Below, in pieces: positions 3,271-62,379 of a stretch of 64,000 nt of DNA. The translations under genes were made by a program, and so were the position numbers. The DNA is from Cyanidioschyzon merolae. Taxonomy: Eukaryota. The number at the start of each line of letters is the position of its first letter. Position 1 is the first letter of the stretch. The notes under the pieces were generated by a model, which was not told where the DNA came from, made no database searches, and saw nothing but the letters and a program-made list of their open reading frames with translations. The stretch lies in the NCBI GenBank assembly GCA_000091205.1, contig AP006489.2. One strand, 5' to 3'.

Positions 3271-3329
3271 CCATCGATCCACGTCCTACTTCCAAGTTCC
3301 ATACCTCATTCTTCTTCTCGGATATACTC

Positions 3330-4620
3330 GTCGTTTGATCTGCTCTATCGAGCGCCGAGCACCTGCCCTGATCGTCTGCGACAGCGCCTGTACCGTTGGT
3401 ACGGATGCAGCTCGGCAACAGAACGGCGTTGCCGTGCCAGAGAGAGCGTCGGCTCGACAGGTTAAACGAATGCCGTGTCACGGAGGCCTCCCATTCTTGT
3501 TGGACCGGCCACCCTTCCAATGGTTTCAGCTTCTCCTTGTGCATAACGGCTCTGAGAGGCTGCCCCACAAAGTTCGCTCGTGTCTGCTCCGCGGATCACG
3601 TCTTCAGTACCACACATCGTCCGATATGGATGGCGGCATTGAAGTCTCGGTTCACGGATTCTATGCGTTTATTGCCTCTGATTGAACAGATCCTTTCAAG
3701 GCGTCGTTGAACGCTCGCCCCCTGTTCGATTTGGTGCTCTATCAGCTATTCAAACTTTCCGATCGCCGAGGCGCTTCGCAGCCTTCCCACCGTCTCGATC
3801 TTCAGTATTGTACGCCTCTGCTGAATCTTTCGATTTTTTACTTTTGAAAATGGATGCACTACTTTGTACCCTTTTAAGTGAGGGCCTTCTCGGGGCGAGA
3901 AGGACTTGCGGAAGAAAGACGAGATGTGCTGCCTTGTGTTACGCTGTGTTGAAAACTTCATCAATTCGCCCAGAGCAGCGATCGCTACGTTTCACGATAG
4001 AGAGCACTCTTTCGATGCGGCTCAACAATGGACAGTACGGAGGAATGAAGAGCAGCTCTACCCGATAGACCCGGCAAAAGCTCGAACGCAAGCGGAAATA
4101 TCAAATGCAACGTTGTCCAAAGGAAGGACGTGGCAAGACCTTGAGAAGAAAATTTTCAAGGATTCAGTGGAGTAGATCGTGGCGTTGTATGAGCTTGCTG
4201 TACGGGCGAAACTGAGACCGTCGAAAGAATCCACTGCATCTATACTAGATAATGATGTCGTCGTTCTCTTCGAGTTCGATCTTAGATACAACGGGTTCCC
4301 TGTACGCGAATACCCAGATACGCTCCGATTGTTTCATCAGAAGCAAGTCTCACCGACTGGAAAAACAAACCGGCGTCCCTGTGCTTCATACGGATCGGAA
4401 CGTTCCAGGAACGCTGTCGCTGCGATTCCGATGGAAGATAGCCTTGCACGAACCAGGGCATTTTGGGAATGTATCACGGTGTTTTTGCGATCATATGAAC
4501 GAGCTGGCGAGAAAAATACATACAGGTAATGGCTATTGTCATCGCTCTCGCCTTCCGAAAAAAAGGGGTTCAAAGGGTCATTCTCTACCATTGACCTCAG
4601 GAAGTATCTGAAAATATCGG
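3330..4620 (-). mobile_element. Degraded composite DNA-transposon remnant, copy 1: Tc1/mariner-type transposase C-terminal fragment plus TnpB/Fanzor-like RuvC-III fragment plus a conserved downstream hairpin-rich element
   Basis: Minus-strand translation near 3990-4060 gives VELLFIPPYCPLLSRIERVLSIVKR (compare Tc1 [13 protein letters not shown]..LK). Minus-strand 3610-3650 gives ESVNRDFNAAIHIGRC (RDxNAAxNI RuvC-III signature). The whole interval is homologous, inverted, to 48640-49900: shared peptides FFRKSFSPREGP, C(V/I)RAFA(G/D)SI, LVLFE(F/Y)D, VLHT(D/G)R..PGTL, with a constant coordinate sum near 53188. Confidence 0.55.
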
Positions 4621-6565: not shown

Positions 6566-8476
6566 CTAGGCGATTCCGGATGCAGTACCGCGCACCATCT
6601 CGGCGATGGTCGTTGTCGTGGCGCTCAAAGTCGCTACAGCGCCGAATGCTAGCATGAAAATGTCGAGTGCTCGCTCCCATGTGGAGAGTCGCTGCCAAAA
6701 CACACGCAGATGAAAGAGCGCCGGCAGCGTGTACGCGAGTGTCGCTGCACCGAGCGCACCCACAAGTGATTGGAAAAGTCCGAAATCTTTGCCGGCGATG
6801 ACTGCTGCGACAACGGTGCCAATGACAAGCGAAACACGCACGAGAACGGCAGCGGGCTCGTCAGTGAAATAGGTGCAATAGAGGGTTGCGACTCTCCTCG
6901 CCAGCGGTGCCCGGTCTGCGGCGATGGGCGGGGCCGGTTCCGGCGGTGCCTCAGCTGGTGCGCTGGCCTGCGGAGATGGCGGCGAGGCTCCACCAGGCGC
7001 ACCGAATGCATCGATATGATCTGGTACAGGGACCGGAGATGTCGAAATCGCCGCTTTGGAACCGCCAGATTCTTCGAACAGTAGCGCGCTGCCCGGACCC
7101 GAATCGCGCTGCTCTGAAGCAACTCGCACGTCGACAATATCGATGGAATCGAGTCGCTCGTCAAGAGGCTCTGGCGTTTGCTCCCCGTCGATTGCACGAG
7201 ACGCTTTACGCTCGGGCGTAATGCGAGTTTCGACGACCTGAATAGCGTCTATAGATACAGTCTCATCGAAAGGTTCCGGATGCCGGCTTGGCAGTGGCTC
7301 GCCTGAATGCGCCGATCCAGTACCCAGTTGACGCGTTCGAAGCCACGTCGTGGTTGCCAGCCAGGCCTCGAGCGCTTGAACAATGGGTACCAGCTGCAGT
7401 GGATATGTAAAAAGAATACCGATACAGGCAACGCTCTTCACAATACGCACGGCCGCGCTGTGACCCATATTCAGGAGAATGATCGAGCGAGTCTGCTTGC
7501 CAAAGGTCATGAAACCCAGCAATCCGATGAGCAGAAGAATCGCCCCCATGAGCACCATCGTTGCGCTCAGGATAACGTTGAAGCGACGGGGATTCTTCAT
7601 GCTCCCTTCGACTGGCAAGACCACACCGATGCCTTCCAGTGCAGCGCTCATCTGTCCAAAGAACACGGGCCACTTCCAGAACAAAGGCGAATACGGTCGA
7701 TATTGAAAGTTTGCCATGAGGAATACAAGCACCGCACTGAACCCGACGAAAATACCGATATTGGCTAGATAACTGAATGGTGTCAACTTCCGCACCGACC
7801 GCAGAAGCGCCAACGTGAGCACGATGGGCAGCGGGATGAGGAGGAACCAGGCTGGCGCACAGTCGCAGCGCGTCAGGTCATGTATGGTCTGGGCGAGGAA
7901 AATCAGATACCCCGTGCAGTACCCGAACTGGGTCAGCAGGAGCGCCAGATTCACGACCAGCTCTCCGGCACGACCAAAGGCATAGGCACCAACGTCGCCG
8001 TAAAGCACTTGTCGAGCGGGCACACACGACGCTGCCCCCGGAGAGTCCGAACTGACCTCTGCGAACGGTGCACGTTCTGAGCCAGGTTCTGTGCCGCCGC
8101 GTTGTCTCTGCCACCATTCTGCTGGGATATGGCGCTTCACGCGCACGAGTAAGACACAGCCATAGAAGGTCAACAGACTGACTAGGACCAAACCCAGAAT
8201 GCCTCGCGTCACGCCAGCGTAGGAAAACGCATAGGAAACGTAGAGAAAGTTCAAACCGAGGAATCCTTTCAGCAAGTTGGCAAACTCACCCAGCACGCTT
8301 TTCAAACTCGAGCCCGACGTGCGAAGCGTGTCGCTTTCGGGTTTCGTACCGGTTGCGTCCGCGTTTTCCGCAGAGTGCTCGGTAGCCACAACCAGGTCCG
8401 GGACACTGTCTGCAGCGGCCTGCGACGAGGCACCTCCCGGCGAGCTCGCCGCGTCTGGTGTAAAACGCCCGACCAT
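6566..8476 (-). CDS. Amino-acid transporter of the Aa_trans (AVT/ATF-like) family with a large low-complexity internal loop. First ATG used; the track start at 8554 is GTG.
   Basis: N-terminal SVLGEFANLLKGFLGLNFLYVSYAFSYAGVTRGILGLVLVSLLTFYGC is typical of the Aa_trans family. About 11 TM segments. An insertion of roughly 200 aa rich in P/A/S/E/D sits between helices. Confidence 0.75.
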   Translation of the reverse strand: MVGRFTPDAASSPGGASSQAAADSVPDLVVATEHSAENADATGTKPESDTLRTSGSSLKSVLGEFANLLKGFLGLNFLYVSYAFSYAGVTRGILGLVLVSLLTFYGCVLLVRVKRHIPAEWWQRQRGGTEPGSERAPFAEVSSDSPGAASCVPARQVLYGDVGAYAFGRAGELVVNLALLLTQFGYCTGYLIFLAQTIHDLTRCDCAPAWFLLIPLPIVLTLALLRSVRKLTPFSYLANIGIFVGFSAVLVFLMANFQYRPYSPLFWKWPVFFGQMSAALEGIGVVLPVEGSMKNPRRFNVILSATMVLMGAILLLIGLLGFMTFGKQTRSIILLNMGHSAAVRIVKSVACIGILFTYPLQLVPIVQALEAWLATTTWLRTRQLGTGSAHSGEPLPSRHPEPFDETVSIDAIQVVETRITPERKASRAIDGEQTPEPLDERLDSIDIVDVRVASEQRDSGPGSALLFEESGGSKAAISTSPVPVPDHIDAFGAPGGASPPSPQASAPAEAPPEPAPPIAADRAPLARRVATLYCTYFTDEPAAVLVRVSLVIGTVVAAVIAGKDFGLFQSLVGALGAATLAYTLPALFHLRVFWQRLSTWERALDIFMLAFGAVATLSATTTTIAEMVRGTASGIA

Positions 8477-9852
8477 GAAGGAAGCTTGCTTCGCATTCGC
8501 GTACGTCTGAGACAGCGTCAATGACGAAGAGTTCACGCTGTGAGGAAACCGCACCTAGTCAGGCGGGTAGGCAGTCTGCCTGAATACGTTCGTACGTATG
8601 GGTGTCGCGCGCGACTCGAGAAAGTAACGACAGCAGGTAGAGGCGCGCGTGGATACTCCGCCAAGCTCCGACGTGAGACACGGGGGCTGGTTGCTCTCAT
8701 ATGCACGTTGAGGGTGCCTATGCTTTGAATGCACGTAGTTGTAGGTGTGTCTGCTTTCCAGGGAAAAACTGTGCAGGAATATGGGCGAACGGATGCAGTG
8801 TCTGCATAGAAAAACGAAAGCGTTGAGCAGTACGCGTTTGTTTTTCATAGTAGCTATCGGAAAATCGACGCTTCGTTGCTTGATCCCTGAACAAATCAGC
8901 AGAAAGGTTGCAATGAGAAGTCTATCTTGCCGGCAGCAAGTCTCGAGCAGGCATCCTGGCAAGCTGGCTGGTTCCCGATCTAGCGAAATCAATACCACGA
9001 AAACGAGCTGCTTCCGGTGTCGGTGCACTGTGCTCGCGGTGCCTCTACTACGTCGTGTCGCGACTTGTGCCGCTGGAGCGTGAACTCTGCCGCAGAACGA
9101 TACGCAGCGCGAACAACAAAGCACGCTGTTGCTGTGGAGCTGTCGCAGCTCCTGCTGACAGCATCAGGCTGCGTAACCTGGTAGAGTCTCGTTCGGTGCA
9201 TCGATCTCGTTTGGCGTACCCGACGGACTACACGAATCAGGGAATCGCTGAACCATACGCAATGGTTATTGGCATCTGGGAGAGCGTCCATTATGCTGCA
9301 GGAGACTTGCAAGCTCCACTGGGTACCAGCCATAATTCCATGCGGATATCATGGTCGATTCAAATGGTCTAATAGGTGCTGAGCTCACCGTACGCGCTCA
9401 CTACCAAGTCTGTGGATGCATGGATCCTGTGCAGTTGATAAAGCATCCACGTTCGAAACCGATACTTGGTACGATGGTAGACAGTTCTTTCATGCCAGCT
9501 GGGCGTGCTGCAGGACGGTGCATGTGCTCGCTGCTCATCCTCCAATGCTCGACATGCACTCTTGTGAGAATTAAAAATGAAACAAGTCCATGAGCACGGG
9601 GCGTGCAAGTCTAACCTGGGATCTATCTCTGCTATCAGCAATACCAGCGTTTGCGGGCTTTTTCGAAGACGACTTTGTCTCTCTGATCTCCGGATTTGAA
9701 CACGTTGGTGTGCCTGCTTTTCGCCCAGCTCCGCTGCGGGCAGTCGAATGAAGTTGACAGCAGCTTTCAAGTCCCGAAATCAAAGCGCCAAGCTGTGATT
9801 CAAGCATTTCATGCACAGGCAAGCGTTCCGATTTGCGCTCGGCATGCCAGAT

Positions 9853-10339
9853 TCATACTTTTTTTGTGTATGGCCTCGATGCGCACTTCGTAGCGGTGAC
9901 GCTCGGCACGGGTATGGTAAGGGGTTTCCATGTAAGAAATGTGCTTTCACCTGCGGGCGGTGCACGACGGTGCATGAACGCCTGCCTCATGGCTCGGTAC
10001 ATGCCCTTGACAGGCGTACAAGGCTTTCCTCGATACTCGGCTCGGTTTCCGCCCCGGTGCACCGCACCCTATGATCACAGGCTTTTTCTGGGCGATCCCC
10101 TTGTCAAGGACGCGGTCCGCCGCACGCGCAAGCTGTTCTGTTCGATACAGGATTTGCGGAATGCGATGCTGTTCATAATGAAACAAGTACCGGAACGAAA
10201 CTCCATCTTGGAGAACAAGTCGCGCAGCATCGATTCGTTTGCGTTGCTTTCGTACAAAGCGGTGGTGTACGCTCTACTGGAAGTGATCGCTGCGATGACA
10301 GGTGCCCGAGTCGAACACCCTTCCCGACGCAAAAGATAG
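9853..10339 (-). pseudogene. TnpB/Fanzor-like nuclease fragment (copy A), frameshifted and truncated before the zinc finger and RuvC-III
   Basis: Consecutive minus-strand ORFs in different frames carry LFSKMEFRSGTCFIMNSIAFRKSCIEQNSLRVRR and then RGKPCTPVKGMYRAMRQAFMHRR..FLTWKPL. These align residue-by-residue with copy C (35.5-35.8 kb): DMDFAFRARFIINNITLH and KPKVSVKGMYRVMKQFLTRH..VDIWEH. Confidence 0.5.
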
Positions 10340-11093
10340 AGATGCAGACGCTATGGAGCATGCTCCGCGATAGGTAGCATACTGCCGTAAAGTACCGAAT
10401 CATCAACGGCTGCAGAGAGAGACAGCATGATTTGTCTATCGAATAAAGTCGGTTATTTAACGGAACAAGTTCAGTAACGTTTTTGCATGAGCCTGCGACA
10501 AAGGATTCTGGGAGATTCTTTGGGGGGTTTCGTTCCCCCAGCAACCCAGCGGCATGCTCAGTTGCGCCGCCGAGTTGCCTCAAAAGATAGTCGTATAGAA
10601 AACCTGAAGCAGTTGTGATATGGGCATGGTACACGTAAGGAAAGGAGCAGCGTGGACTATCTTACACACGAATTGGATAAAGATATCGCGTACCTTACGA
10701 AGCTTTGCTCAAGATCGTCTCAAACCATCTTGACTCCTGGAATGTCATGAATTCCAGTGGTAAAGCATCGAAGGAGCAACGCTGAAAACGCGATCAAGAA
10801 CCCTAACGCTGCGTGTGAGTCCGTGAACCCCCATTGCTGCCATTCGAATGCCACGGCTATCTATCTACACAAATTTTCGGAAAATAATCGAAAGCCTGGA
10901 AGAGAGCACCCAGTACCGTATTCCGAAATGTTCTGACATGGGCGTGCGACACAGCTTCCGCCAATTTTGAGAAGCGCGCTCCGTGAGCCGCGCCAGGTAT
11001 TCGAATACTTTAGACGTAGACAGCGTCTTGGTACCAGCATCCATAAGAGATGCTGTTTGGCAGCTACTGGAGCCCAGTGTGTGGCTGGTTTGA

Positions 11094-11128
11094 CACCACC
11101 ACCACCACCACCACCACCACCACCACCC
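11094..11128. repeat. (CCA)n microsatellite, about 11 units
   Basis: Run caccaccaccaccaccaccaccaccaccaccacc seen directly. Confidence 0.95.
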
Positions 11129-11734
11129 TGGATATGCACGCTGCCTGCAGAGGTTCCCTAGCGAGTCCGCAGGCCGCGTACCTGGCTGGCCAGATACCAC
11201 CTCGGTGTTGTACGTGGTGCACCGGTGTTTCGTGTCGTTTCACGTGCCAAGTACCATTCCACCAGATGTCTCTACTGGATTCCGGGTTTAGCGAATGGTC
11301 CCGCTTCCTCCACACCTAACCACGATTCCGTCACAAAGAAGCTGCACGGCGTGCCGCGTTCTCTCTTCCCTTGAAGACGCTTCCATTCCCAGTGCGGTAT
11401 GCGAACGGACGCTTCGCCGCCTCCGTTTTGCGTCAGGCAGCGCTGGTTAGACTCAAACTCATGGAGAGACGCATCTGCAAAGGCAGAGCAGCCAGTTCCA
11501 CGCTGAGTGCCGCTCGTCGTCGTCATCATCACCATCGACGAAAAGTTCTGCGCTGAGGCGCCTCGCCTCTCCTGTCAATATCGTGGAGCGTGGCGCGCCA
11601 CTATCGACGCTAGCGTGGCCAACTTCCAGACGCGAAACATCAAGCATTGGGTACTTGTTCGAAAATCATGCCTCTCCAAGTGCCAATGTATCCCATGCGA
11701 GCGCTCCAAGTGCCGGTCTGGTTTACAATGACGT

Positions 11735-14647
11735 TCAGACGCTATCGCGCAAATACTGACAGAGAAAGAGTACCTTCGAGAGCGTGTCCTCGCACCGAAG
11801 CCAAGAGCTGTCGAGTGCCCTCAGGCATTTCGATGCCCCGTGCTGCAGTGCCGGTTCCTTCATGATCAGCTCCGCGTGCTCGTTCAGAAACACCCGTAGC
11901 TGCGCCTGAGCAAGTTCAAAGTCACGCTCTGACTGCAGACGCCACGTGAAGAACGACAGCGCATCGGCAAGTGCCTCGGGCGGCAGCAGCCGTATTTCTA
12001 CGTCTGCCGCCGCTGGTGTCAGCGCATCCAGGCGCTTTGCGGCGGTGGCAAAGTCTGCTCGCTGCAATGCATCCACAAAACTCGAGGCTATCGAATCGGG
12101 AAGCGGTCTGCGGTCCTCGATGCCGGGCGAAACAGACGCGTCCGCAGCTTCGCGGTAGCCGTCGTGCAGCTCAGCGACTAGCGGTGGTGGCGGTTTCTGA
12201 GTCCCGGTCACGGAATCGCTCTCCCTCGTTGCCTTGTTCTGCTCCTTGATTTCGTCAAGGTACGGCAGCAGAAGCCAGTAGCTTTCAGGCTGACTCGAAA
12301 ACACGACGCCGCAGTGTGCATCGTCGATAGGTTCAACGGTTAGCGAAACACATCGCGGGTTATTTTCAGGGGATGCTGTAGCGTCTGCAACTGCGGAGAC
12401 AACGGGATCCCACGACATTGCCAGGTCCGGCAGCTGCACCGCATGACGCCGCCAGAGCGCTTCCACATCGAGACCATTTCCCGCTCGCGAAGAAAGCGCC
12501 ACCATATTGCCCTGCTCGCTGGGCCCCCGATAATACGCTTTGCAGTGCCACATGCAGATTCCGATATGCCCCACATGCGTTGTGACAATAAAATCGCCCC
12601 GTGGTGACATGGCGCATGACGTCGGTGCAGCAGCCATACGAAGCACATCCACACAGCGGCCTGCGACAAGATCCCACGTTCGGAGCGTTCCGTCCAGTGA
12701 AGTGCTCAGAATTTGTCGCCCATCTGCTTGGCAGCTGAAGCAGATATCCGTAATGCGAGCAGTGTGGCCCCTGAGCCAGCGCACACAGCGGCCGCTCGCT
12801 GCCTCAAAGACTTTGATGGAAAAGTCGTCAGCACAGCTCACAGCGAGAAGATCTGAAACCGGACTCCAGATGAGCTGTAGACCTGGACTGTGGACGACAA
12901 TATCGGCGACTTTCTCACGCGACTGATGTCGATAGATGCCGAGGCGTCCGTCGTGGCTACCCAGTGACGCAAGCAACCCGCCGCTCCCGTCGAAAGCGAC
13001 ACCCGCTACACCTCCCGGATGGTGCGCGTCTCGTATCCGCCACCGATGCAACCCACTCTGGAGGTTGAAGAGATCAACGTGACCCACAGAGAGACCTACT
13101 GCAGCGAAATGGCCGCAAGTGGAAATTGAAACACAAGTCGCAGTGCCTTGATCGAGATCCGTTGAAGCGTCACCCCGGAAACGGAGCACATGGCGATAGC
13201 GATGGTTCTCAGCGTAGCGCCAGGTGTAGGCCTCGGAGCGCCCGAGGTGACACGTTACCAGATTGGCAAGATCCGGGTCGTTTTGTCGAGCCTCACTCAC
13301 AGCAAACTCCGTTACCGGTGGAAGAAGCGATGCGGTGTCGGGATCGTCCTCGTCGAGTGCGAACTCATCCGATGCTTCAATGGCGCGCTCGTGTTGCATT
13401 TGACGGGCCCGCTTGCGTGCTCTCCGTAGCCGCGTTGTGACCTGGGACAACTCACGGTGATGATGGGATACGACTGTGCTGGTAACGCGCAGCTGCTGAT
13501 CACTGCAGCCCGCAGAGATCAGCTGGCGATAATCTTCACCGATGAAACGAATGCGCGTCGGCGGTGCCCGGTGCCCGGCTCGGTACTTGAGCAGACGCGG
13601 TGCACCGCTCGGTGAATCGCAAATAAACATGTTCATGCGATTATCCTCATCGCCAATGGTCAACAGGATCGGCTCGCGGGGATAGAAGAACGCCATCCGA
13701 CATGGACCCCGATGCAGACGCGGTATCGTGTCCAGAACTCGCCGTGCTTCGAGGTCGTAGATGCAGAGAGAGCCATCGGAGTGGAACGAGAACAGATGCG
13801 GAAACGCATTCGCATCGTCGTTCCGGAAACACAACGCATTGACAGTGAGCGAGGTACCCAGTGGCAGGTGCATCCGCAGGTTGTACTGATCCAGGATCGA
13901 GCCACGACCAATGTCGTAGATGATCACAGAGCCGTCGTGGAAACCCATGCCGATGATATCCAGCGCCGGAGACTCTGACAGCGCCGTCACTGCACCGTGC
14001 TTGGAAAAGTCGAGTGTCTGGAGGATGCGACTGTGGCAAATATCCACGAGTGCAATGCGCCCCTGGTCGCTTCCGATGCAGACGACGTCGAGCATCGTCG
14101 GTGGATGCACAATGAGGCCATTCGGGGTGATATCTTCTCCGAAGAATACTTCCGAGACGAGCTCATTGTCGCGGTTGTAGGTGCGCGCGCAGCGTTCTCC
14201 AGCGTCCACTGCAACGAATACTCCATTCCCAAAAGCGTATAGCCCAACGATGCAGCCACCTGGGGCAGTTTCGATCGACACACGGGATCGCAATTGTTCT
14301 GTTATATGAAGGCTGTGCTGTGTGGCAACAACCAGTCGCTCTCGACCGAGATGCGCTACGGCAGTGATGCGCGAAGGCAAAGCATTCGATAGGCTCAGTA
14401 AACGAAGCGTCCTTCCATCGTAGAGCTGCAGGCAGCGTCCAAGCGGTACGACAACGAACGGTGCAATGCCGAGTTCATAGAAGCATGGCTTGGGGGACGA
14501 GGTACCGCCAAGCATGCGCCCGCTTCCCTCACAGGTGACCAGGCCGAGAACTCGAAATGGAGCGTAAAGTGACGTGCGTTGCCCCAGCGCGACGAGTTCT
14601 CCCTCTTCGAGGCCACCTTCGAGCAGCTTTCCCTCCGCCTGCACCAT
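11735..14647 (-). CDS. WD40-repeat protein, UTP21/WDR36-like (U3 snoRNP / SSU processome component)
   Basis: 970-aa ORF with ATG start. Many WD-like repeats (GH..V..V..H, ..DG.V.I.D). C-terminal alpha-helical domain, as in Utp21. Assignment to UTP21 specifically is tentative. Confidence 0.75.
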   Translation of the reverse strand: MVQAEGKLLEGGLEEGELVALGQRTSLYAPFRVLGLVTCEGSGRMLGGTSSPKPCFYELGIAPFVVVPLGRCLQLYDGRTLRLLSLSNALPSRITAVAHLGRERLVVATQHSLHITEQLRSRVSIETAPGGCIVGLYAFGNGVFVAVDAGERCARTYNRDNELVSEVFFGEDITPNGLIVHPPTMLDVVCIGSDQGRIALVDICHSRILQTLDFSKHGAVTALSESPALDIIGMGFHDGSVIIYDIGRGSILDQYNLRMHLPLGTSLTVNALCFRNDDANAFPHLFSFHSDGSLCIYDLEARRVLDTIPRLHRGPCRMAFFYPREPILLTIGDEDNRMNMFICDSPSGAPRLLKYRAGHRAPPTRIRFIGEDYRQLISAGCSDQQLRVTSTVVSHHHRELSQVTTRLRRARKRARQMQHERAIEASDEFALDEDDPDTASLLPPVTEFAVSEARQNDPDLANLVTCHLGRSEAYTWRYAENHRYRHVLRFRGDASTDLDQGTATCVSISTCGHFAAVGLSVGHVDLFNLQSGLHRWRIRDAHHPGGVAGVAFDGSGGLLASLGSHDGRLGIYRHQSREKVADIVVHSPGLQLIWSPVSDLLAVSCADDFSIKVFEAASGRCVRWLRGHTARITDICFSCQADGRQILSTSLDGTLRTWDLVAGRCVDVLRMAAAPTSCAMSPRGDFIVTTHVGHIGICMWHCKAYYRGPSEQGNMVALSSRAGNGLDVEALWRRHAVQLPDLAMSWDPVVSAVADATASPENNPRCVSLTVEPIDDAHCGVVFSSQPESYWLLLPYLDEIKEQNKATRESDSVTGTQKPPPPLVAELHDGYREAADASVSPGIEDRRPLPDSIASSFVDALQRADFATAAKRLDALTPAAADVEIRLLPPEALADALSFFTWRLQSERDFELAQAQLRVFLNEHAELIMKEPALQHGASKCLRALDSSWLRCEDTLSKVLFLCQYLRDSV

Positions 14648-16771: not shown

Positions 16772-17430
16772 GTGGATCCCGAGCCGCACCCGGAGGTTAC
16801 GCTCAGCAGGGTCAACGAACGACGAGACGCGCTGGTTAGCGCTGCTGACTTGTTCCCGGATGCATCACAGGGCCGTGGCCTGGTATGCACCAAAACTTAC
16901 GGTATGCGCGTTGCTCGATCATGACGGCAAGCTATGCGCATCTCGGTTGTGCTTGGTCTGGCACAAAACGCGAAAGCAAGCTGCCAGTGATCTTGATTGT
17001 CGCTTTCAAGTGAAGCGGCGGGTAAAGCACGCACCGACGGGCGCTATGTCGACCGCTGCTGCGGAACGACCAGACGGCAGGCGTCGCTGCGACCTTGTGA
17101 TGATGCCACAGAGAAGCACATAAATGAGCGTTTATCGTTACCAGCTTCGACGGAGCATGTGATTGTTCCCGCTGGAGAATGCACATTAGTGTGGTGCGTT
17201 CCCGTCAGGTCAAGTAACGACCGGGGATTCCGTCCGCACCGCCTCCGTTAGACATCATGTGCTGAAGGTGTCCGAGGCTCGTGCGCAGATCACTCGCTTG
17301 GGCCGTACTCGTCTATGTGTCGAAAGGAAACACCGTCGACGAGCCGAGTGCTTCGCTTCGATCGCTCATTCGTCATAGCATTGTAGATGAGCGACGAAAG
17401 CGCGTTCATGACGCCTCGCTCCGCGCCTCG

Positions 17431-18037
17431 CGAATGGAGTCTAGAGTGGGTATCGTCGAAAAATACAAGTCTATGATCGTTGACGAATTGCCCACGACAA
17501 TCGTTACCAGTAGAAAGAGGTAGAGAGAGAGCTATGCGGCGCGTCAGGCTTGCTCAGTCGCTGAACCCCTCCATACCAGTCCTTTGATCAACGCGAGCAT
17601 CCAGAGCGGTATCTCCTGGTCACCGAGTTTTTGCATCGGAATGCAGCTGCGTTTCAGTACAATGGCCGCACAGAGTGCGAAACGAGTCTCGTTCAAGTTC
17701 GCTCGACACGAAACCGCTGGACGCGACTGAAGCGCAGGACATTTCCGGGTATCGATCGCTGCATGCAAGTAGCGGTTCGGAAAGTGCATGCCCTGCTGGG
17801 TACTGGTGGCATCGCAACACAGCAAGTGTCACCACCAGGTCGATAGTCGCGCCATCTGATGTTGCATCAGTTACCCGATGTACGATCTTGTGAGTCTGGC
17901 TCTGTTTCACGCGCCTCTACGCTGCCGGATTCAACAGGCACCTGTGCTCGCGATACACGTACTTTGTCCTTATTCATTCGCGAAACTCGCATAGATCCGA
18001 TTGCTGGACTCGGTGTATGCTCCTGTCGATAAAGTCG
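17431..18037. repeat. Dispersed 606-bp repeat, copy 1. About 99% identical direct copy at 25076-25682.
   Basis: Both copies begin gaatggagtctagagtgggtatcgtcgaaaaatacaag and end gatccgattgctggactcggtgtatgctcctgtcgat. I found only 4 mismatches by eye. Flanks are unrelated. Confidence 0.9.
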
Positions 18038-21244: not shown

Positions 21245-22460
21245 GTGTACGCCAAGCAGCGCAGAGGGCGGCATCTAAGCGAGTCGCGGCGAGGCCGCGA
21301 GCGGCGACCGCATCTTCCTCATGCTGTACCTTACGCACTTTTAGGGATATATCTGGACTTCATTGGCCTGTCCGATGCGTGCGCGCCTATTTTTGTCCAT
21401 TTTGATGCAATGCTGACCAAGCCAGCGTTCTCTGACCCGGTGCTCGGTATTCGCACGCGGTGGAGCATTCGTGATTCCAGGGCCCGCTTCCAAGTCCCAG
21501 AACCCATCCTTCATCCCGTATACACAGGTTGCTTCATTCGTTCGATCGCTTGCCCAGCGTCTCCCCTGATCGTCCGCAATACTGCCTGTACCGTTGGTAC
21601 GGATACAGCACGGATGCAGTACGGCGTTGCTGTGGTAAACGAGGGCTTCGGGCTCGAGGTTTGCCTCAGACGACACTGAATCAGGGCTCGTCGCCAGTTT
21701 GTGCTCAGCCAGTCTGCGGTTGCAAACTTGCCTTCGCTGCACGACACGTTGGAGCAACTTGGCTGTTAGGATGAATCCTGGGAGGCGCCTCTCTCCTTTG
21801 TGATCGTTCATGGAATGCACGATCGTTTAGCGACGCGGGCTATTGCTAGGCACCCACCAGTGGGTAGGCGCAGAAAGCGCACTGGGCCCGTGTGCGCATC
21901 CGATTCGCTGGACCTTTTGCCCAGAGGGTGGCTTGGGCGCGAATGTCCGCCAGGCCGCCGCCTGTCTGTGGCGCACGAACGCTTGCTTCATCGGTCGGTG
22001 CATGCGACGGGCGTATGCAAAGGGTTACACCCTGGATGCTCCTCTCGGTTTGCGCATCCGGTGCTGTACTCTGCGATCATGGGCCTCTTCTGGGCGATTG
22101 CCTCGGCGAGTGCTCTGTCTGCTGTAAACACAAGCGCAAGCGGTTTTACTAGATAGCGGTTATGTTGCATGGGATTTCATATTCTTGATGAAACAGGTAC
22201 CGGGAGGAAAATCCAGGCTGGAGCAGAAGTCGAGAAATGTCGATCTGCCAATGCTCCTTTCGTCCAAATAAGCGACGCCCTGGACATGGAAGCGATCGCC
22301 ACGATGGCTGAATTCCGAGTCCGAGGCCTTTTTCCAGGCACACAGAAGAGACGGAACCCCCTGGGGGCATAGTCCATAAGATGCAATGCCGCTGCCTGGT
22401 GCCGTTCCCGTGAAGGCCACAAAGAGAGGAGTCTATGTCTGTCATTCGGAATCAATTATG
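21245..22460 (-). mobile_element. TnpB/Fanzor-like element remnant (copy B) plus a downstream conserved hairpin-rich element shared with 3340-3450
   Basis: Minus-strand ORF ending at 22160 has LDFPPGTCFIKNMKSH, the family motif seen in copies A, C and D. Interval 21540-21650 is about 80% identical to 3340-3450, with core gcctgtaccgttggtacggat.cagc.cgg...cggcgttgc.gtg. Further minus-strand similarity (MHKEKLKPLEG vs MNDHKGERRLPG) runs up to about 21820. Confidence 0.45.
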
Positions 22461-22984
22461 ATTTGATTTGACAAGTTCTCGGAAAGTTCGGCTGGAGCTT
22501 GTGTCCAAACAGCGTCAGGCCGACGTCGAGTGTGTTTTTCCTCGTCAGGCCAGCGGCACGAGTTGCTGCATCCATGCATTGCCATGAGATCGAAGTATAG
22601 AAAATTTGGAGAATGCATGGTTTCGGCATGCGGGACGTTTGCAACATTAGAAAATTGGAGGTGTGTACATACGCACTGGATAACGATATTCGTTATTCTA
22701 CGAGCACGCGTTCACTAGCGACGCCAATCATGACGAATTCGTTGACAGCACGCATTCTGGCGGCAGCGTCCCAAAAGATCGATTCCGATGAACGCGACCG
22801 TGAAACCCAAAACAACGAATGATTCGATGAGCCCTGATTCATGACCTTCGAAAGCCGAACCTGTACAGCTTCAAAAAAACTTTCGGAAAAATATTCCAAT
22901 GGTACGAACAGAGCAACCAGTTTAGCGTTCGGTTTTCCGCTTTACGGATTCAAAGCACCGCACCTGGTGCAAGCCGCAACTGCA

Positions 22985-23565
22985 GCGCGGCGCCAGCGCG
23001 GACGCCCACCCCCTGCCAGCGTGGGGCCCATGGAGGTATCGTCTGCTTAGTCTCTAAAGTGGTAATCTATGGTAGTTTTATGCAGAATGACTTGGCAGGC
23101 GCTATGGACCGCGAGGGCGCTGCGCTCGCGTAGCAGATCGTGCAGTTTTATGCGTTGGTAATATAGTGACGCGCATGCGCTTGCGCGGACGCCCACTCCC
23201 TGCCAGCGTGGGGCCCATGGAGGTATCGTCTGCTTAGTCTCTAAAGTGGTAATCTATGGTAGTTTTATGCAGAATGACTTGGCAGGCGCTATGGACCGCG
23301 AGGGCGCTGCGCTCGCGTAGCAGATCGTGCAGTTTTATGCGTTGGTAATATAGTGACGCGCATGCGCTTGCGCGGACGCCCACTCCCTGCCAGCGTGGGG
23401 CCCATGGAGGTATCGTCTGCTTAGTCTCTAAAGTGGTAATCTATGGTAGTTTTATGCAGAATGACTTGGCAGGCGCTATGGACCGCGAGGGCGCTGCGCT
23501 CGCGTAGCATATCGTGCAGTTTTATGCGTTGGAGATATAGTGACGCGCATGCGCTTGCGCGGACG
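22985..23565. repeat. Tandem array of a 179-bp unit, about 3.2 copies, ending inside the 5' end of the PcyA ORF
   Basis: Unit gcgcttgcgcggacgcccactccctgccagcgtggggcccatggaggtatcgtctgcttagtctctaaagtggtaatctatggtagttttatgcagaatgacttggcaggcgctatggaccgcgagggcgctgcgctcgcgtagcagatcgtgcagttttatgcgttggtaatatagtgacgcgcatgc recurs at about 22997, 23176 and 23355. The first copy is slightly diverged. Confidence 0.9.
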
Positions 23566-24526
23566 GCTATTACTTGCCAAAGCTGACCATCCTGCCGCTT
23601 CACTTGAGCTGTGTGTACGCATGGCTTTTCTTGCAAGCAGTTGCGTAACAACTGCGCATCCGCTAACCCGTCGTTCAGCGAAGCAGCGCTGTGCGGCAGG
23701 GGTCCACGTGCGTCGCGCGTTGCTGGCCTCAGGTGCTGCTGGCGAGCGAAGGTTGCGGCGCGTGCAGCACCCACTGATTCAAAGACTCGCTGAGGGCATA
23801 GAGCGCACTTGGCAGACAGAGCTGCATGACCTTGCGCCGTTTCACCTACCAGAGGACCTAGGCTACATCGAAGGGAAACTCGAAGGCGAGAGAGTCGTTA
23901 TCGAGAATGTCTGTCATCAGAGTCCGGCCTTTCGAAAAATGCATCTGGAGCTAGCACGTGTCGGGACCTCCCAGACCGCGTCCTTGGATATTCTGCACTG
24001 TGTTATGTTCCCGTGCGCTGGGCGCGTCGGAACCAATGTACCCATGTTCGGCTGTGATATTGTAGCGGGACGGGGAGCGGTATCCGCAGCGATCGTCGAC
24101 CTGTCGCCAGTCAGCGCCTCGCGAGAACTGCCGCCGAGCTACCGAGACGCACTGCAGTCGCCGGAAATGGCTGCGCTTCGACGTTTTCGCCAGGTACGCG
24201 AGTTGCCGGCTTGGGGTCGCGAGATCTTCTCCGAATTCTGCGTTTTCATACGCCCGGTGCAGACACCCGAATGCAATGAAGAGGATCGCTTCGTGGATTT
24301 AGTATTGCGGATGCTCCGGATTCACTGCCATCTAGCACAGAAGAGCACGAGCACACCACATCTGGACCAGGTAAGAGAGGCCCTGGAGGGCCAGATTCAC
24401 TACTGTCGAAAACAGCAGGAGAATGACAAAACGCGCCGTGTCCTGGAGAGTGCTTTCGGTAAACCCTGGACGGAGCGCTACATTAGCACGGTGTTGTTTG
24501 ATTCGCCGGTGCTGGCAGCGAACTAG
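23549..24526 (+). CDS. pcyA: Phycocyanobilin:ferredoxin oxidoreductase (ferredoxin-dependent bilin reductase, PcyA type) with an N-terminal presequence. Start is ambiguous (23549 or 23621).
   Basis: [50 protein letters not shown]...[23 protein letters not shown]...[24 protein letters not shown]...[34 protein letters not shown] closely follows cyanobacterial PcyA as I recall it. The track start at 23540 is GTG, and ATG 23549 lies inside the last tandem-repeat unit. Confidence 0.85.
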
Positions 24527-25075
24527 ATTACCTTTTGGTAATGCTGTCAAGTGAGTACATGTACAACACGCAAGATGCATTTAGCATTGTAGTCGAGTGG
24601 AGTTCTAGGAGCCGCTCGGTACAAGCTCTTTTCCTGTTGCAGTGCCACGGCGGCGCGGTGTCGTCAGCTGGCGAAGAGGCCTCCACCAGAACCTGAACGT
24701 AAGCGACGCCGCGCTGTACGCTGCCTATTCACCGAGGACGCATCCATGAAACCAACGTGAAACGCATGGCAATGCCGCATGGGTCGTAACGCGAATGCGA
24801 ATGCCGCACAGCGCCTTTTGCATGACGATGATGGATGCAAACCTCCCGATATTTGTGTCGAGTGCCGGATGATGACTGGATGCACGTGCACGTGAAGTCG
24901 AATGGACAGGATGCTGCGGCTGGTACAGCGGCATCGGTCGCTGCCTGCACGGTACAAGCTGTCATGGAATGCGCGCCACTCGAGGGCATTCCATAATAGG
25001 ATATGTGCTCGCTTTGCGCTGGGGTCATGTTGGGAGTACCTGCAACGCGCATCATGCGTTGGACCAGACCGGCGC

Positions 25076-25682
25076 GAATGGAGTCTAGAGTGGGTATCGT
25101 CGAAAAATACAAGTCTATGATCGTTGACGAATTGCCCACGACAATCGTTACCAGTAGAAAGAGATAGAGAGAGAGCTATGCGGCGCGTCAGGCTTGCTTA
25201 GTCGCTGAACCCCTCCATACCAGTCCCTTGATCAACGCGAGCATCCAGAGCGGTATCTCCTGGTCACCGAGTTTTTGCATCGGAATGCAGCTGCGTTTCA
25301 GTACAATGGCCGCACAGAGTGCGAAACGAGTCTCGTTCAAGTTCGCTCGACACGAAACCGCTGGACGCGACTGAAGCGCAGGACATTTCCGGGTATCGAT
25401 CGCTGCATGCAAGTAGCGGTTCGGAAAGTGCATGCCCTGCTGGGTACTGGTGGCATCGCAACACAGCAAGTGTCACCACCAGGTCGATAGTCGCGCCATC
25501 TGATGTTGCATCAGTTACCCGATGTACGATCTTGTGAGTCTGGCTATGTTTCACGCGCCTCTACGCTGCCGGATTCAACAGGCACCTGTGCTCGCGATAC
25601 ACGTACTTTGTCCTTATTCATTCGCGAAACTCGCATAGATCCGATTGCTGGACTCGGTGTATGCTCCTGTCGATGGAGCTGG
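25076..25682. repeat. Dispersed 606-bp repeat, copy 2 (direct orientation relative to 17431-18037)
   Basis: See copy 1. The duplicated ORFs in the track (17544..17825 and 25188..25469) are identical. Confidence 0.9.
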
Positions 25683-30962: not shown

Positions 30963-31221
30963 GAGGAACAGCACTCCAGCGCCTTGCTCCGTATGTCTGA
31001 AGTTCCGCACAGTCAGTAAAACCGGTCTTTGACACCTTCACGATGAGAAAGACGACGTCTCGAAAATGCAGAGGCGTATCGTGCTCACACCTCGCTCGCC
31101 GGTGGACTAGCACGGCTGATGGTACGGGAGCCGGGGCGAACGTCGCATCTCCGGCCGGCGGTCGGTGGCTTGATCATCACCTGGCTCAGCGAGGTACAGC
31201 ATTGAGCATCTGAGCGGTTGT

Positions 31222-31556
31222 ATGGTACTCTGGACGGAGCTGGTGAAGGAAACGCAGCTATGATAGATCTCTCGTTGTTGTATAGGCTGTATAGAGCAAT
31301 ATAGGCGAAAGAGAACGCAACCGATTCCTGTTTATCAATGAATGAACACTCTCTGGTCAAGCAGGTGTCTCTGGATAACGTTCTTTTTTGGAGATTTCGA
31401 CGGAGCTGGTGAAGGAAACGCAGCTATGATAGATCTCTCGTTGTTACATAGGCTGTATAGAGCAATATAGGCGAAAGAGAACGCAACCGATTCCTGTTTA
31501 TCAATGAATGAACACTCTCTGGTGAAGCAGGTGTCTCTCGATAGAGAATTAGCAGC
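31222..31556. repeat. Tandem duplication, 2 units of about 167 bp, roughly 200-550 bp upstream of the AlaRS start
   Basis: cggagctggtgaaggaaacgcagctatgatagatctctcgttgtt.tataggctgtatagagcaatataggcgaaagagaacgcaaccgattcctgtttatcaatgaatgaacactctctggt.aagcaggtgtctct occurs twice (about 31225 and 31400) with 2-3 mismatches. Confidence 0.85.
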
Positions 31557-34691: not shown

Positions 34692-35225
34692 TTGAAGCGT
34701 CTAGGTAACGCTAGTCACCTAAACTTCCAGCGATCCTGCCAAGAACGTCGGTAGGCAGGCAGGCTGGCTGGCTGGCTGGCTAGCTGGTAAACCACAACGC
34801 AGCATGCTGCAGTGCAAACGGATTCAAAGGGAACACTGACCTATCTACTCGCTATATCGCTGCGTTTCTATCTTATTCAGACCTTTTTTAGTGTGCAGCC
34901 TTGGCATTCGCACGGAAGCAAGAGGGGTTTACGAAATCCTACCTAGTTTTGCGATTCTCGGTCGTTTTAGCGGAGTTGTGCCTTGGATGCTTTGTCGCTG
35001 GAATTCGTTACGTTAAGGAAATGAAGGTGATTCGCGTCGCCGTCGAGCAAGAGCTCCTTCAATGATCGATATCGGGACTTCATGCATACGTACTAACCTC
35101 TATTTTTCTCCGTTGCTTCAGCGTACAACGTGCAAATCAGGCATGCTTGGAGGTTTCGACCTCTCTATTTAAGGCTTCTCGTGAGTGCAGCTAATAACGT
35201 CACTGGACTCACGCGGAAATAATTC

Positions 35226-36040
35226 TTGACGACACCGACCATCGATGACTTGTTCAACAGCTCACGTCAAAAGATCACTGAGCTAATCACGTCAAATACT
35301 CGATTCCGTTCGACGGACATATCACCCCGTCTTCATGAACATGGAAGAGACAGCATTCCACAGCGGCATGACACCTCGCCGGGTAATACGCTCGAAAGGC
35401 TACCGTCTCCTCTGTTTGTACGGAAATTCGCCATGGTCTTGGATTTGAGTCATCATAACGACTGCGTCCAATGGGCAGTGCGTCACCGAGTTGCACGAAG
35501 TAAGCGTCGACGGGTCGTAATCTATCGACTTGTTCTCCGATATGGATTTTGCTTTCCGTGCTCGTTTCATCATAAACAACATTACACTCCACATTTATTC
35601 CATCGAATGGGACAGCGTACGCTTTCATGAGCAGCGGACAGCGTACTCGCCGAGGAGGTTGCCCACAACAACAAGTCCACGATCTTATTGTATGGAACCA
35701 AGCGCGGAAACGGAGCAGCGGGCATTGGAGGAAACCCAAAGTATCTGTCAAGGGCATGTACCGGGTGATGAAGCAATTCTTGACGCGCCACAAGGCGGCG
35801 CCCGGAAGAGTAGATACGGTGGACATATGGGAACACATGACGACAACCATATATAACCGCTGCAAGCGGCACACCTGGCCAGTATACAAAGGAGATGGAA
35901 ATGCCAAGCGAAGCGTCGATGCCAATGATCGCCTGTACATGAAATGCGTTGACATGAACTGGAAGCGGCGAAACCGCGACTCGAACGCCGCCATCAACAT
36001 CTTTCGACTGCCGAATACGAATCTGGAAGTAAAGTGAGAG
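35226..36040 (+). pseudogene. TnpB/Fanzor-like RuvC nuclease remnant (copy C). The most complete copy; split over three frames.
   Basis: Frame a: FAMVLDLSHHNDCVQWAV (RuvC-I-like, GIDLG-type). Frame b: DMDFAFRARFIINNITLH. Frame c: KPKVSVKGMYRVMKQ...YNRCKRH...MKCVDMNWKRRNRDSNAAINIFRL (zinc-finger remnant plus canonical RDxNAAxNI RuvC-III). The upstream extent is limited by the kinase-PP2C gene, so the N-terminal domains are missing. Confidence 0.65.
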
Positions 36041-36242
36041 ACCGACGTATTTAAAGCTTCAAAAACGAGAGAGAAAAAGCCGGCAAAGACTGGTGTTGAT
36101 GATAATGGGTAACGACGAAAACCTGAGCATGTAACTCCTCCGTGCAAGCGGGACACGTTCCATTTCATCATGATACGGACGTCGTCCATACGTCTCAATG
36201 AACGTAACAGATCCGTTCCGTTTCATGCTGACACTGGTGTCG

Positions 36243-36677: not shown

Positions 36678-38072
36678 GATGAACTGCGACCCCAGATAAC
36701 GCCTACTCGTTGTTTTCTATCGCTGCGTTAGGTGCCGTAGCAGGTAAACGCAAGCGTCTATCTCGAGCAGCTCAAACGCGAGCAGTACCCACGAGGCATA
36801 GCAGCGGCTTGTGCACCATATCGCAAAAGCGTTTTTTCGTCTGGCAGTTGACGCCCGTGTGCAGCAAATGCGGGTGCGTTCGGCTTCGCACAACAGCTAT
36901 CCATTATTTTCCCAAATAATACATACATGTACAGTAAAATCGCATATGCGTGCCAGAGGTCCTGGTGTGCATGCGCATTTCTCTATGGCATGGGATGGGT
37001 GGCACGAACCGGACATCGCTCCATGTGTGCGCTCTCTCGAAGCATCTGGGTATGCATGCGGCATACCGCTCCAGATGCTCAGGTTCCACCCGCCGTGTTC
37101 ATCATTATCATCATCATTACCGTGAACGTGTTCTATACTTCCCATTGGAGATGATGGTTCGTTCACGTCATCTCCCTGGTGCCAGGCATGCTATGTGCGC
37201 TCACCGCAACGACTACGGCGCCGGTACGGACGCTGCTTGGCGACAGAACAAGCGCACGAACACGCTTCCAGCCGCTGTGGACACAAGCGTTTGGCGCACG
37301 AGCCGGTACGCGCACCCTCCGCAAGGCCTCTGGCATGCTGGTCGGCGTGTTCACGATAGCACCGCGCGGAGTTGCGCAGTGCGAACGAGACAATAGCGAT
37401 ACCAACGTGCTGCCTGCGATGCGCCGATGACATCGCCTACGCAGAGCGGCGACAAAGATGCAGGCGGCATAGCGCAGGCATCATCCAGAAACTATGTCGG
37501 TGGCAACGCAGCGAGCTGTCATCTCTTGCCCGCAACGAATGACTCGCCTTTCGCAAAACAGGTCCGCCGTCATCGATCCCTCCATGCAGCACTCGTGCGC
37601 GCAGGCGTCCGTGGACAACACACTGCAGTCCGGTACAAAAGCCTTGCTCCAAGCGCATCTATCCGCAGAAAAATTGACGCTTCGACTTGCTGCTGTGGAC
37701 GACGATACCACTGCCAGCGCCAGACGCGATGCAAGCGGACGTGACACCCTACAATTGACACCAGGCGCAAGCATGCACCCGTAAGCGATCCGGCTCCATT
37801 GGAAAACACAACCGATATGGCAACACGGTCGATAGCGACGATGCCCCTGCACTCGACGTATCGGCAATCCGGAGGTGCCTACACATCGACGGCAAGCCGG
37901 TCGACCGCTTGCGGCAAGCAGAAGCGCGGTTTCGGCAGGCACTAGGCACACACGATAGGACGTATGAAACGACCAGAATATCCGAGAAGAAGTATAGGGA
38001 ATGTAACTTGGAGGTAGGGTGTTTGATGGATACTTAAGCGTGCACTGAAAACCCCACAAAAAGAAAAGAAAA

Positions 38073-47985: not shown

Positions 47986-48175
47986 CAGTCTTCCTAGACG
48001 CGAACAAACTGGCGGCGTGCTGTCGACCTCTGAACCAGTCGCAGCTGGCAGCGCCAAGCGCTGGAGATTTGCGCCGCAGCCCGGAATCGCACGAGATCCC
48101 CAGGCATGCGCTGGGCGTCTGCAGCTGGAGCGCAAGTCTGGGCTCCACGGAACGTTCAAGGCACTGGGGTTGCAT

Positions 48176-48202
48176 GTGGTGGTGGTGGTGGTGGTGGTGG
48201 TT
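48176..48202. repeat. (GGT)n microsatellite. It encodes the poly-Thr run of the upstream non-ATG part of the HIT ORF on the minus strand.
   Basis: gtggtggtggtggtggtggtggtt seen directly. Confidence 0.95.
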
Positions 48203-55325: not shown

Positions 55326-55424
55326 TCTAGGTTCTTGGTACACACCTCAACCGCTTCCCTTATAGCTGCAACTGCATCATCGCGGCACTGGTGCTTCCGC
55401 TGAGAGCGCTCGCGTCCAGCGCGC

Positions 55425-61859: not shown

Positions 61860-62379
61860 TTTGGTCACGACTCGACTCGGACCTGCTAGGTTGTTCGTGG
61901 ATGCGGCATGGAAGCGGGCACATTGGCACTGGAGCAGTGCGCTGCAGCCTGAACCCGCAGGCTGTGACACCCGCACCAGCGTGAAATTGAACAGGCTCGC
62001 GTACTTAACTAGGGCATACATACCAAAGGCCGTTCTCTTGCGACTGTCAAAAATACCAGCCTTTGCGGAGCGGTTTTCGCGACTGTTTCCTTTTCTTCTC
62101 TCTTATCTCCGGATTTCTATACGATGGTCTCTCGTTTCACCCCAGCTCTGATGTCAGCTGTTGAAGGAAGCGGATGGCAGTGCTCAAATCTCGATCTCAC
62201 TGATTCCGGCGGTTTTCGACGACTCCTATGCCCGGGCATAAGTTGCCCGTGATGCTTCCCGTGCCATTTTCATCTGCTTGGTTTACAGACCGGGTGCGCA
62301 TGTCAGAGCGATGACAAGCCCTATGGTGGTCAAGTGTTCCCGTGTGTCCACCGAGCCTCCGTCTTGTAAATTCGCTCTG

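Follow-up and report, generated by a model that had tools for sequence, protein, structure and literature searches.

A probable fossil of a non-autonomous DNA transposon with transposase and Fanzor1 remnants in Cyanidioschyzon merolae

The repeat that we call copy A, in the genome of Cyanidioschyzon merolae, is very probably the non-functional fossil of a non-autonomous DNA transposon, derived by one internal deletion from an ancestor that carried a DDE_3 transposase gene and a Fanzor1 gene. Fanzor1 belongs to the TnpB superfamily and is a RuvC nuclease guided by omega RNA. Copy A is about 1.35 kb long, is internally deleted, and holds the remnants of two genes, the transposase in its 5' half and Fanzor1 in its 3' half. 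We based this reading on the homologies of the two halves, the deletion junction that the copies share, the reading frames, and the mapping of individual residues, all of which we observed directly.

We analyzed 64,000 nucleotides of contig AP006489.2 (assembly GCA_000091205.1), referred to here as the window. Seven long open reading frames (ORFs) of the window were exact matches to annotated C. merolae 10D proteins, including BAM79622-BAM79637 and CYME_CMG116C; the CMG tags suggest chromosome 7. Metagenomic contigs with 99.2-99.7% identity to the window are also known. Copy A lies in the 3.2 kb that separate an amino-acid transporter gene (6566-8554) from a WD40 gene (11735-14647). The dispersed repeat to which it belongs is present four times in the window (copies A, B, C, and D); these align collinearly for about 1.3 kb at pairwise DNA identities of 66-72%. 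Copy A occupies about 9572-10925 on the minus strand; its ends, which are approximate, mark the limits of similarity when its DNA is aligned collinearly to copies C and D and to the metagenomic loci L012 and L013. Copy C, on the plus strand (34829-36167), is the best preserved and has the DDE_3(225)/Fanzor1(524) structure found in A. The same structure was recovered for copy D (61982-63323, minus strand) from DNA, profile, and transposase alignments. Copy B (21942-22800, minus strand) is partial; it has the same junction, and its Fanzor homology is detectable only to about residue 593. Every copy of the repeat contains multiple stops and frameshifts. When compared by blastn, copy A 9983-10222 and copy C 35775-35526 were 68% identical over 253 nt (E 2e-15), which bore out the homology to copy C proposed in a sequence-only reading of this DNA. 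The limits of 9853-10339 given there were too narrow.

The copy C ORF at 35627-36037, which carries KGMYR, WEH, and NRDSNAAINI, was the query for phmmer, run exhaustively against 1.84 billion representatives. We found 92 relatives, mostly short ORFs of decayed copies, together with several intact proteins, 536-765 aa in length. When frameshift-corrected copy C was the query, a word-indexed protein search gave no matches, and a second, profile-based protein search added no further relatives. The intact relatives are metagenomic and have a GC content of 43%, unlike the host of copy A; no intact autonomous copy was found from C. merolae itself. On the Cas12f1-like TNB family (PF07282) the copy C ORF scored 20.6-21.3 bits, under the cut-off of 26.3, and Pfam reported no TNB domain (PF07282) in copy A. 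Three of the five intact relatives scanned (P0098, P0117, and P0096) passed the PF07282 gathering score with 33-35 bits. PDB sequence searches with copy C, P0098, and the family profile returned nothing relevant, and the link to Fanzor1 was made by fold comparison. The AlphaFold2 (AF2) model of P0098 (pLDDT 72.5) had SpuFz (9CEU/8GKH) as its top Foldseek match (E 8e-15 to 2e-13, TM 0.53/0.58), followed by PpFz and GtFz and then by Cas12f and TnpB. In addition, the alignment of 14 intact relatives (A2) matched the Fanzor1 proteins of Bao & Jurka 2013 with an hhalign probability of 99.6% (E 4e-24, 527 columns). The residues D413 (LDPGRVNLY), G551 and G553 (VIIGYGTG), E565, E595 (VWEHxTTQKC), and D644 (RNRDFNAAINIL) were invariant in the 14 relatives. 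With the predicted full-length structure and the profile in agreement, we conclude that the intact relatives of copy A are a Fanzor1 clade.

The Fanzor1 remnant of copy A covers 9714-10132 on the minus strand and corresponds to P0098 residues ~527-664, from the RuvC-II strand to RuvC-III, as found by profile-to-DNA alignment, by tblastn with intact relatives, and by multiple alignment. The profile-to-DNA alignment was a custom, frameshift-aware procedure whose profile was built from alignment A2. With it, copy A from 10189 to 9967 mapped to P0098 residues 509-585, reliably only from 10132 on, with a score of 124 against 28.8 +/- 2.8 for shuffles (z ~34). The stretch from 9776 to 9714 (RDLKAAVNFIRLPAAELGEKQ) mapped to the RuvC-III helix (37.1 against 21.6 +/- 2.8 for shuffles, z ~5.5). 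At 10026 to 9916 lies the segment KPCTPVKGMYRAMRQAF...FLTWKPL that the sequence-only reading had reported; it is 37.5% identical to copy C over 40 aa and also matches intact Fanzor1 proteins. The same reading had ended the copy before the zinc finger, yet both the zinc finger and the RD motif of RuvC-III are present, as remnants only. The first CxxC of the finger is degraded to TATKCASR, and the second is preserved as CMKC (9804-9815, minus strand, by multiple alignment). Next comes a TGA stop (9780-9782) and then FRDLKAAVNF (9779-9750), a RuvC-III remnant (9750-9782, minus strand) that corresponds to NRDFNAAINI of the relatives and keeps the catalytic Asp codon. The Fanzor1 ORF of copy A is not intact: it runs through at least three frames, has the in-frame TGA at 9780-9782, and has lost the N-terminal two thirds of the protein. 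A search for the RuvC-I Asp found no Fanzor homology upstream of P0098 residue ~509-527 in any copy in the window. The strings LDVG and LDDT of copies B and C were considered as RuvC-I and rejected, the same DNA being transposase. On these alignments, the part of copy A from 10132 to 9714, including the KGMYR segment, reads as a Fanzor1/TnpB-superfamily pseudogene fragment.

Upstream of the Fanzor1 remnant, copy A encodes the remnant of a DDE_3 transposase of the Tc1/mariner-IS630 type (10150-10846, minus strand). Frameshift-aware alignment matched this DNA to residues 7-227 of a 317-aa relative, with about seven frameshifts and several stops. The alignment score was 121 for copy A against 43.4 +/- 6.4 for shuffles (z ~12), and the other copies behaved similarly: 148 against 43.4 +/- 7.5 for copy C (z ~14), 98 against 41.1 +/- 4.7 for copy D (z ~12), and 99 against 43.0 +/- 6.0 for copy B (z ~9). 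Corrected translations matched the transposase by BLASTP with E values of 1e-15 (A) and 4e-12 (C); the alignment that selected these translations is also the one that scores them, and the shuffle controls are the only unbiased measure. The 317-aa transposase itself scored 90 bits on PF13358 (DDE_3). When the corrected translations of A, C, and D were scanned, DDE_3 went undetected by Pfam; this assignment, like that of copy A to Fanzor1, is a comparison with specific relatives. In copy A the context of the first catalytic Asp is retained (AAVDDS), the second Asp has changed to Asn (FIMNS for LMDNI), and the third catalytic residue falls in the deleted part, leaving the triad incomplete.

The segment MEFRSGTCFIMNSIAFRKS, which the sequence-only reading had taken as TnpB/Fanzor-like, falls inside this transposase remnant. 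It aligns to ETLNFPSDTVMLMDNIAFHKS of the transposase, the region around the second catalytic Asp. Within it, the 17 residues FRSGTCFIMNSIAFRKS are identical to the transposase at 10 of 17 positions, against 4 of 19 for a Fanzor reading of that DNA, and we therefore regard the Fanzor extension as spurious. We had also considered Fanzor homology up to about 10300, from tblastn extensions and with MEFRSGTCF as a mere wrong Fanzor frame. This extension was dropped because, in a restricted profile alignment, the Fanzor signal upstream of residue ~509 was not significant and because the transposase alignment explains the DNA. Accordingly, the earlier identification stands for the 3' two thirds of the described stretch, from 10132 on, and fails for MEFRSGTCFIMNSIAFRKS.

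The two remnants meet at a deletion junction (10132-10150, minus strand), located with the transposase and profile alignments, where Fanzor1 codon ~525 follows transposase codon ~227 in a different frame. Transposase homology in copy A reaches ~10150, and reliable Fanzor homology begins at 10132 (LARAAD...). The corresponding end of the transposase and start of Fanzor are at 35592 and 35604 in copy C, 62582 and 62585 in copy D, and 22169 and 22137 in copy B. The frame offset across the junction is identical in A, B, C, and D. In L013, from another cyanidialean genome with 50% GC, the junction unites the same transposase and Fanzor1 residues, as judged from residue positions and not from frame offset. 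A junction common to all copies indicates descent from one internal deletion derivative. The stretch had been described as contiguous, but an old deletion breakpoint divides it into parts of two different proteins.

The junction also accounts for the reading frames of copy A. Three minus-strand ORFs that overlap, each in its own frame, had been described, and we found them at 10075-10332, 9947-10186, and 9853-10062. The change of frame between the first and the second is due to the old junction. The change between the second and the third is due to a 2-nt deletion (10048-10057, minus strand), a gap unique to A in the A/B/C/D DNA alignment; the profile alignment has frameshifts at 10056 and 10048. 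The three ORFs are the transposase frame, the Fanzor frame past the junction, and the Fanzor frame past the 2-nt deletion. Protein identity between copies A and C was 36-40% in all three frames, as expected of neutral DNA-level homology. For the frame of MEFRSGTCF..., the earlier figure of about 50% over 45 aa was too high: we measured 36% over 72 columns, and 18 of 45 (40%) in the best 45-column window.

One alternative holds that 9853-10339 is a single frameshifted TnpB/Fanzor fragment from a nuclease-dead lineage, in which the RuvC-II Glu was lost and K-P stands for E-D. To evaluate it we located the canonical RuvC-II position by comparison with SPu-1, the consensus of the SpuFz1 family. 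By hhalign, P0098 G553 falls on SPu-1 G500 and P0098 E595 on SPu-1 E536. The AF2 model of P0098 has, in order, a strand at 548-553 that ends on G553, a low-confidence loop, a helix at 570-583 (VKGMY...), a strand at 588-593, and E595. In copy A, the end of the RuvC-II beta-strand is VIIGCG (10061-10078, minus strand). KPCTPVKGMYR (9994-10026, minus strand) corresponds in the multiple alignment to GEPSVPVKAMYR of the intact relatives and represents the loop and the helix start past the RuvC-II strand. By eye, an E-P-x-K/R-G-like string also occurs in some other Fanzor1 supplement sequences. The K-P of copy A lies 14-15 residues downstream of the second Gly of VIIGCG, and its K aligns to SPu-1 R510. 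Because the hallmark Gly falls on VIIGCG, the canonical Glu position of TnpB is represented in copy A by the Gly at 10061-10063 and not by K-P. The KGM segment is homologous to Fanzor1, but its K-P is not the RuvC-II catalytic position. The position of the alternative catalytic Glu is AAA (Lys) in copy A (9925-9927, minus strand, by multiple alignment). This site reads TWKP in A, IWEH in C, TREH in D, and VWEH/Y in the relatives, and Glu is the commonest residue there among decayed relatives (12 of 21).

G500 and E536 of SPu-1 are extremely conserved in Fanzor1 (Bao & Jurka 2013). In the cryo-EM structure of SpuFz1, Mg2+ is bound by D383, N385, E541, and D606 (Saito 2023). By an offset of +5 in numbering, we infer that these are D378, N380, E536, and D601 of SPu-1. 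In all Fanzors the canonical Glu position is taken by Pro or Gly and an alternative Glu lies downstream, and these proteins still cleave DNA (Jiang 2023; 2026 preprint). In ApmFz2 the two residues are G416 and E467, and the E467A variant is inactive (Jiang 2023; 2026 preprint). The predicted active site of the family Fanzor is therefore a normal D-altE-D, with Gly at the canonical site and Glu before TT-x-K-C, and a normal site of this kind argues that the lineage is not nuclease-dead. A missing RuvC-II Glu in a Fanzor-like sequence is no sign of inactivation.

Two observations do favor a single fragment of a dead nuclease. K-P precedes xxxVKGMYR in both A and C, and the change from Glu to Lys in these copies is genuine, with the intact relatives invariant for G-E-P (E565). 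In contrast, 10150-10332 is transposase, and E565 aligns to SPu-1 R510, in a Gly-rich loop that the AF2 model gives low confidence. SPu-1 and CMe-1 have no Glu there, so E565 is not the general catalytic residue. The Glu that would correspond to the Mg-binding residue of SpuFz1, given the +5 offset, is E595 (WEH), which copies C and D keep (WEH and REH) and which has become Lys in copy A. Furthermore, RuvC-I was deleted before the copies diverged, and substitutions that came later are consequently uninformative on function. We consider a nuclease-dead lineage very unlikely, and we conclude that copies A-D are dead as truncated pseudogenes. A separate idea is that E565 (G-E-P-S-V-P-V-K-A-M), an invariant Glu near RuvC-II in addition to E595, is the Glu of the TnpB string E-D-L-N-V-K-G-M, displaced by a Gly-rich loop, which, if E565 reaches the active site, would make the clade an intermediate between D-E-D and D-altE-D. 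We regard this as unlikely, though somewhat less so than a nuclease-dead lineage. If it were true, cleavage by the E565 clade (for example, collateral activity) might differ from that of other Fanzors.

The intact relatives suggest what the ancestor of copy A looked like. The gene for P0169 (765 aa) is always found 71 bp downstream of the gene for the 317-aa DDE_3 protein. Both genes lie in one 3478-bp unit, which was found in at least five different flanking contexts with 99.5-100% identity. Near-identity in varied contexts suggests that the unit is a recently active transposon of a metagenomic organism with about 43% GC, and the intact relatives are apparently active. At L005, the locus of the solo Fanzor1 P0170, no DDE_3 was found. 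At its ends the 3478-bp element has only short, imperfect inverted sequences, without a clear TA duplication. The ends of the window copies show a weak TGAAA...TTTCA terminal motif; neither terminal inverted repeats (TIRs) nor a TA duplication could be discerned in these decayed copies. RNAalifold applied to the 3' 190 nt of five decayed copies gave -2.4 kcal/mol and no conserved structure.

We propose the following history for copy A. The ancestral autonomous element carried a gene for a DDE_3 cut-and-paste transposase and a Fanzor1 gene in tandem. An internal deletion then joined transposase residue ~227 out of frame to Fanzor1 residue ~525. With it the transposase lost the last residue of its catalytic triad, and Fanzor1 lost its entire N-terminal two thirds, WED/REC and RuvC-I among them. 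The resulting derivative of about 1.3 kb was presumably mobilised in trans and rose in copy number within the cyanidialean lineage before it decayed neutrally, most plausibly in that order.

Copy A might instead be a further degraded copy of CMe-1A. About 150 copies of CMe-1A, each about 80% identical to the consensus, have been described in C. merolae, and this single family is the only tie between Fanzor and C. merolae in the searchable literature (Bao & Jurka 2013). We compared its 3169-bp consensus, from the supplement of that paper, to the window by blastn and found matches to other relics, E, F, and G (71-78%), and to several 5'-end fragments; copies A, B, C, and D had no match. P0098 and the CMe-1 protein share 25% identity (E 7e-10), and a search of the CMe-1A consensus for DDE_3 found none. 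That copy A is another CMe-1A copy is slightly less likely again than a nuclease-dead lineage. The missing DNA match, taken with a protein identity of about 25%, places copy A in a second, transposase-linked Fanzor1 family.

A fusion of transposase and Fanzor that encodes, or once encoded, a functional domesticated chimera could explain why the junction is kept in all copies seen, including the one in the other genome (L013). However, the two parts are out of frame with each other in A, C, and D, all copies have multiple stops and frameshifts, and the divergence of about 30% is found in all three frames, as in neutral decay. Such a chimera would also be without the third DDE residue and RuvC-I. 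We find a functional fusion extremely improbable. Finally, spurious ORFs do overlap abundantly on both strands of this DNA, and no family matches the 303-aa antisense ORF that overlaps copy C, but the notion that the ORFs are chance artefacts of GC-rich intergenic DNA is refuted by four collinear copies in the window, 92 relatives, and z values of 9-34 against shuffles.

Taken together, these results indicate that C. merolae probably has a second Fanzor1 family besides CMe-1A, tied to DDE_3 and represented by copies of a single deletion derivative. It has been known since 2013 that C. merolae contains Fanzor1 relics and that some transposons link Fanzor1 to a transposase, and the broad biological weight of the finding is small. 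The near-identical, full-length, putatively active relatives from metagenomes are candidates for compact eukaryotic genome editors.

The copy A family can be compared with five kinds of known system. Like CMe-1A, it has C. merolae as host, belongs to the Fanzor superfamily, and consists of many old copies, often internally deleted, that show no clear TIR or target-site duplication. Unlike CMe-1A, whose consensus is without a transposase, it is linked to DDE_3, and there is no DNA similarity between the two. With SpuFz1 of S. punctatus (8GKH/9CEU) and SPu-1, the intact relatives share the fold, the Gly/Glu pair G500/E536, the C4 zinc finger, and NRDxNAAxNI. Their identity to these proteins is just ~16-17%, and their Gly-rich loop (YGTGRGNGGGHKGE) is longer and includes one additional, invariant Glu. 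Compared to SpuFz1, copy A itself is a truncated pseudogene without WED/REC and RuvC-I, in which the alternative Glu has become Lys. In TnpB (ISDra2), which has E-D-L-N-V-K-G-M, the catalytic Glu ends the strand right before the helix; here that position is Gly, a 15-residue loop follows, and the catalytic Glu stands just after the next strand. The start of the VKGM helix is still recognisable in the family (PVKGMYR).

Transposons that combine a mariner-type transposase with Fanzor1 are already known (PGv-1, PUl-1, and ROr-1/2; Bao & Jurka 2013). These carry a DDE transposase and Fanzor1 in one unit, as does the intact relative, and copy A has the same gene order. The TIRs and TA duplication typical of mariner elements could not be demonstrated in the copies studied here. 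Ghost Spu-1 elements (Saito 2023) are likewise a multicopy derivative that keeps the ends of the element without the nuclease coding sequence. Ghost Spu-1 keeps the inverted repeats only, whereas the derivative seen in copy A retains ~0.7 kb of transposase and ~0.45 kb of Fanzor on either side of one breakpoint.

Intact relatives of the family to which copies A-D belong (decayed relics in the window that join a DDE_3 transposase to a Fanzor1 protein) were found on metagenome contigs. A 3478-bp element on ENA/JGI metagenome contigs L006-L011 encodes both a DDE_3 transposase (317 aa) and a Fanzor1 protein (765 aa), has a GC content of about 43% and ends in CTACA...TGTAG-like termini. It occurs in at least five distinct flanking contexts with 99.5-100% identity. 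This element looks to have been active recently. Contig L006 also carries a second, divergent pair, an 803-aa protein and a DDE_3 transposase, in inverted orientation. A solo Fanzor1 protein, P0170 (712 aa), is intact at L005:10001-12139, and no DDE_3 transposase was found near it on that contig. L005 is 32.7 kb long, 56.8% GC and dense in genes, with a 2625-aa Peptidase_S74-domain protein, a UvrD helicase and ATG8 among its other products; it may belong to a large DNA virus or to some other eukaryote.

Decayed members of the copy-A family were also identified at L013:2318-3079 and L012:436-1450. Both contigs appear nuclear and have a GC content of 50-52%, and therefore are not from C. merolae 10D. 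The L013 member has its transposase (to about residue 226) abutting Fanzor1 (from about residue 530), much as in the window copies, and the L012 member is similar to copy C on both sides. Opposite copy C in the window lies a 303-aa ORF (35287-36198, minus strand), which had no match in Pfam and is almost certainly spurious.

The window contains several direct, tandem and simple repeats. Two 602-bp direct repeats (17429-18030 and 25073-25674) are 99.3% identical, are spaced 7.6 kb apart, and flank the genes for the kinase, RPS15 and bilin reductase. Both repeats hold a decayed remnant, NRYLHAAIDT (17697-17807 and 25341-25451), resembling RuvC-III of CMe-1, the protein of the published Fanzor1 element CMe-1A. 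Among the tandem repeats, eight 127-bp units (54235-55423) adjoin the ORF start of aspartate-semialdehyde dehydrogenase, which is 476 aa as a window ORF compared with 445 aa in the NCBI annotation; three 187-bp units (22990-23579) overlap the bilin-reductase ORF start, and two 166-bp units lie at 31218-31543. The repeat scan paired (CCA)n / (TGG)n microsatellites at 11094-11130 and 48170-48199 as an inverted repeat.

Three relics in the window (E, F and G) match the CMe-1A consensus at 71-78% identity: 3483-3746 (minus strand), 49378-49431 with 49615-49800 (plus), and 63517-63680 with 63808-63957 (minus). All three have a large internal deletion, with consensus positions ~940-2820 missing. Isolated fragments matching the consensus at 3285-3457 and 9262-9300 (plus) and at 37934-38018 and 60049-60311 (minus) represent its 5' end, which is common to TE-N2_CMe. 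One of these fragments adjoins the 3' end of copy A.

In relics E and F, the start of the CMe-1 Fanzor ORF is directly preceded by DDE_3 transposase remnants (3978-4429, minus strand, in E; 48894-49211, plus strand, in F), scoring 33.5 bits on Pfam PF13358, above the cut-off. A further, weak DDE_3-like remnant lies at 39505-39654 (plus strand; tblastn E 7e-4). The published CMe-1A consensus contains no transposase, and Bao & Jurka left the element unclassified. Because the remnants in E and F directly precede the Fanzor ORF start, CMe-1 may also derive from a Tc1/mariner-IS630-type element.
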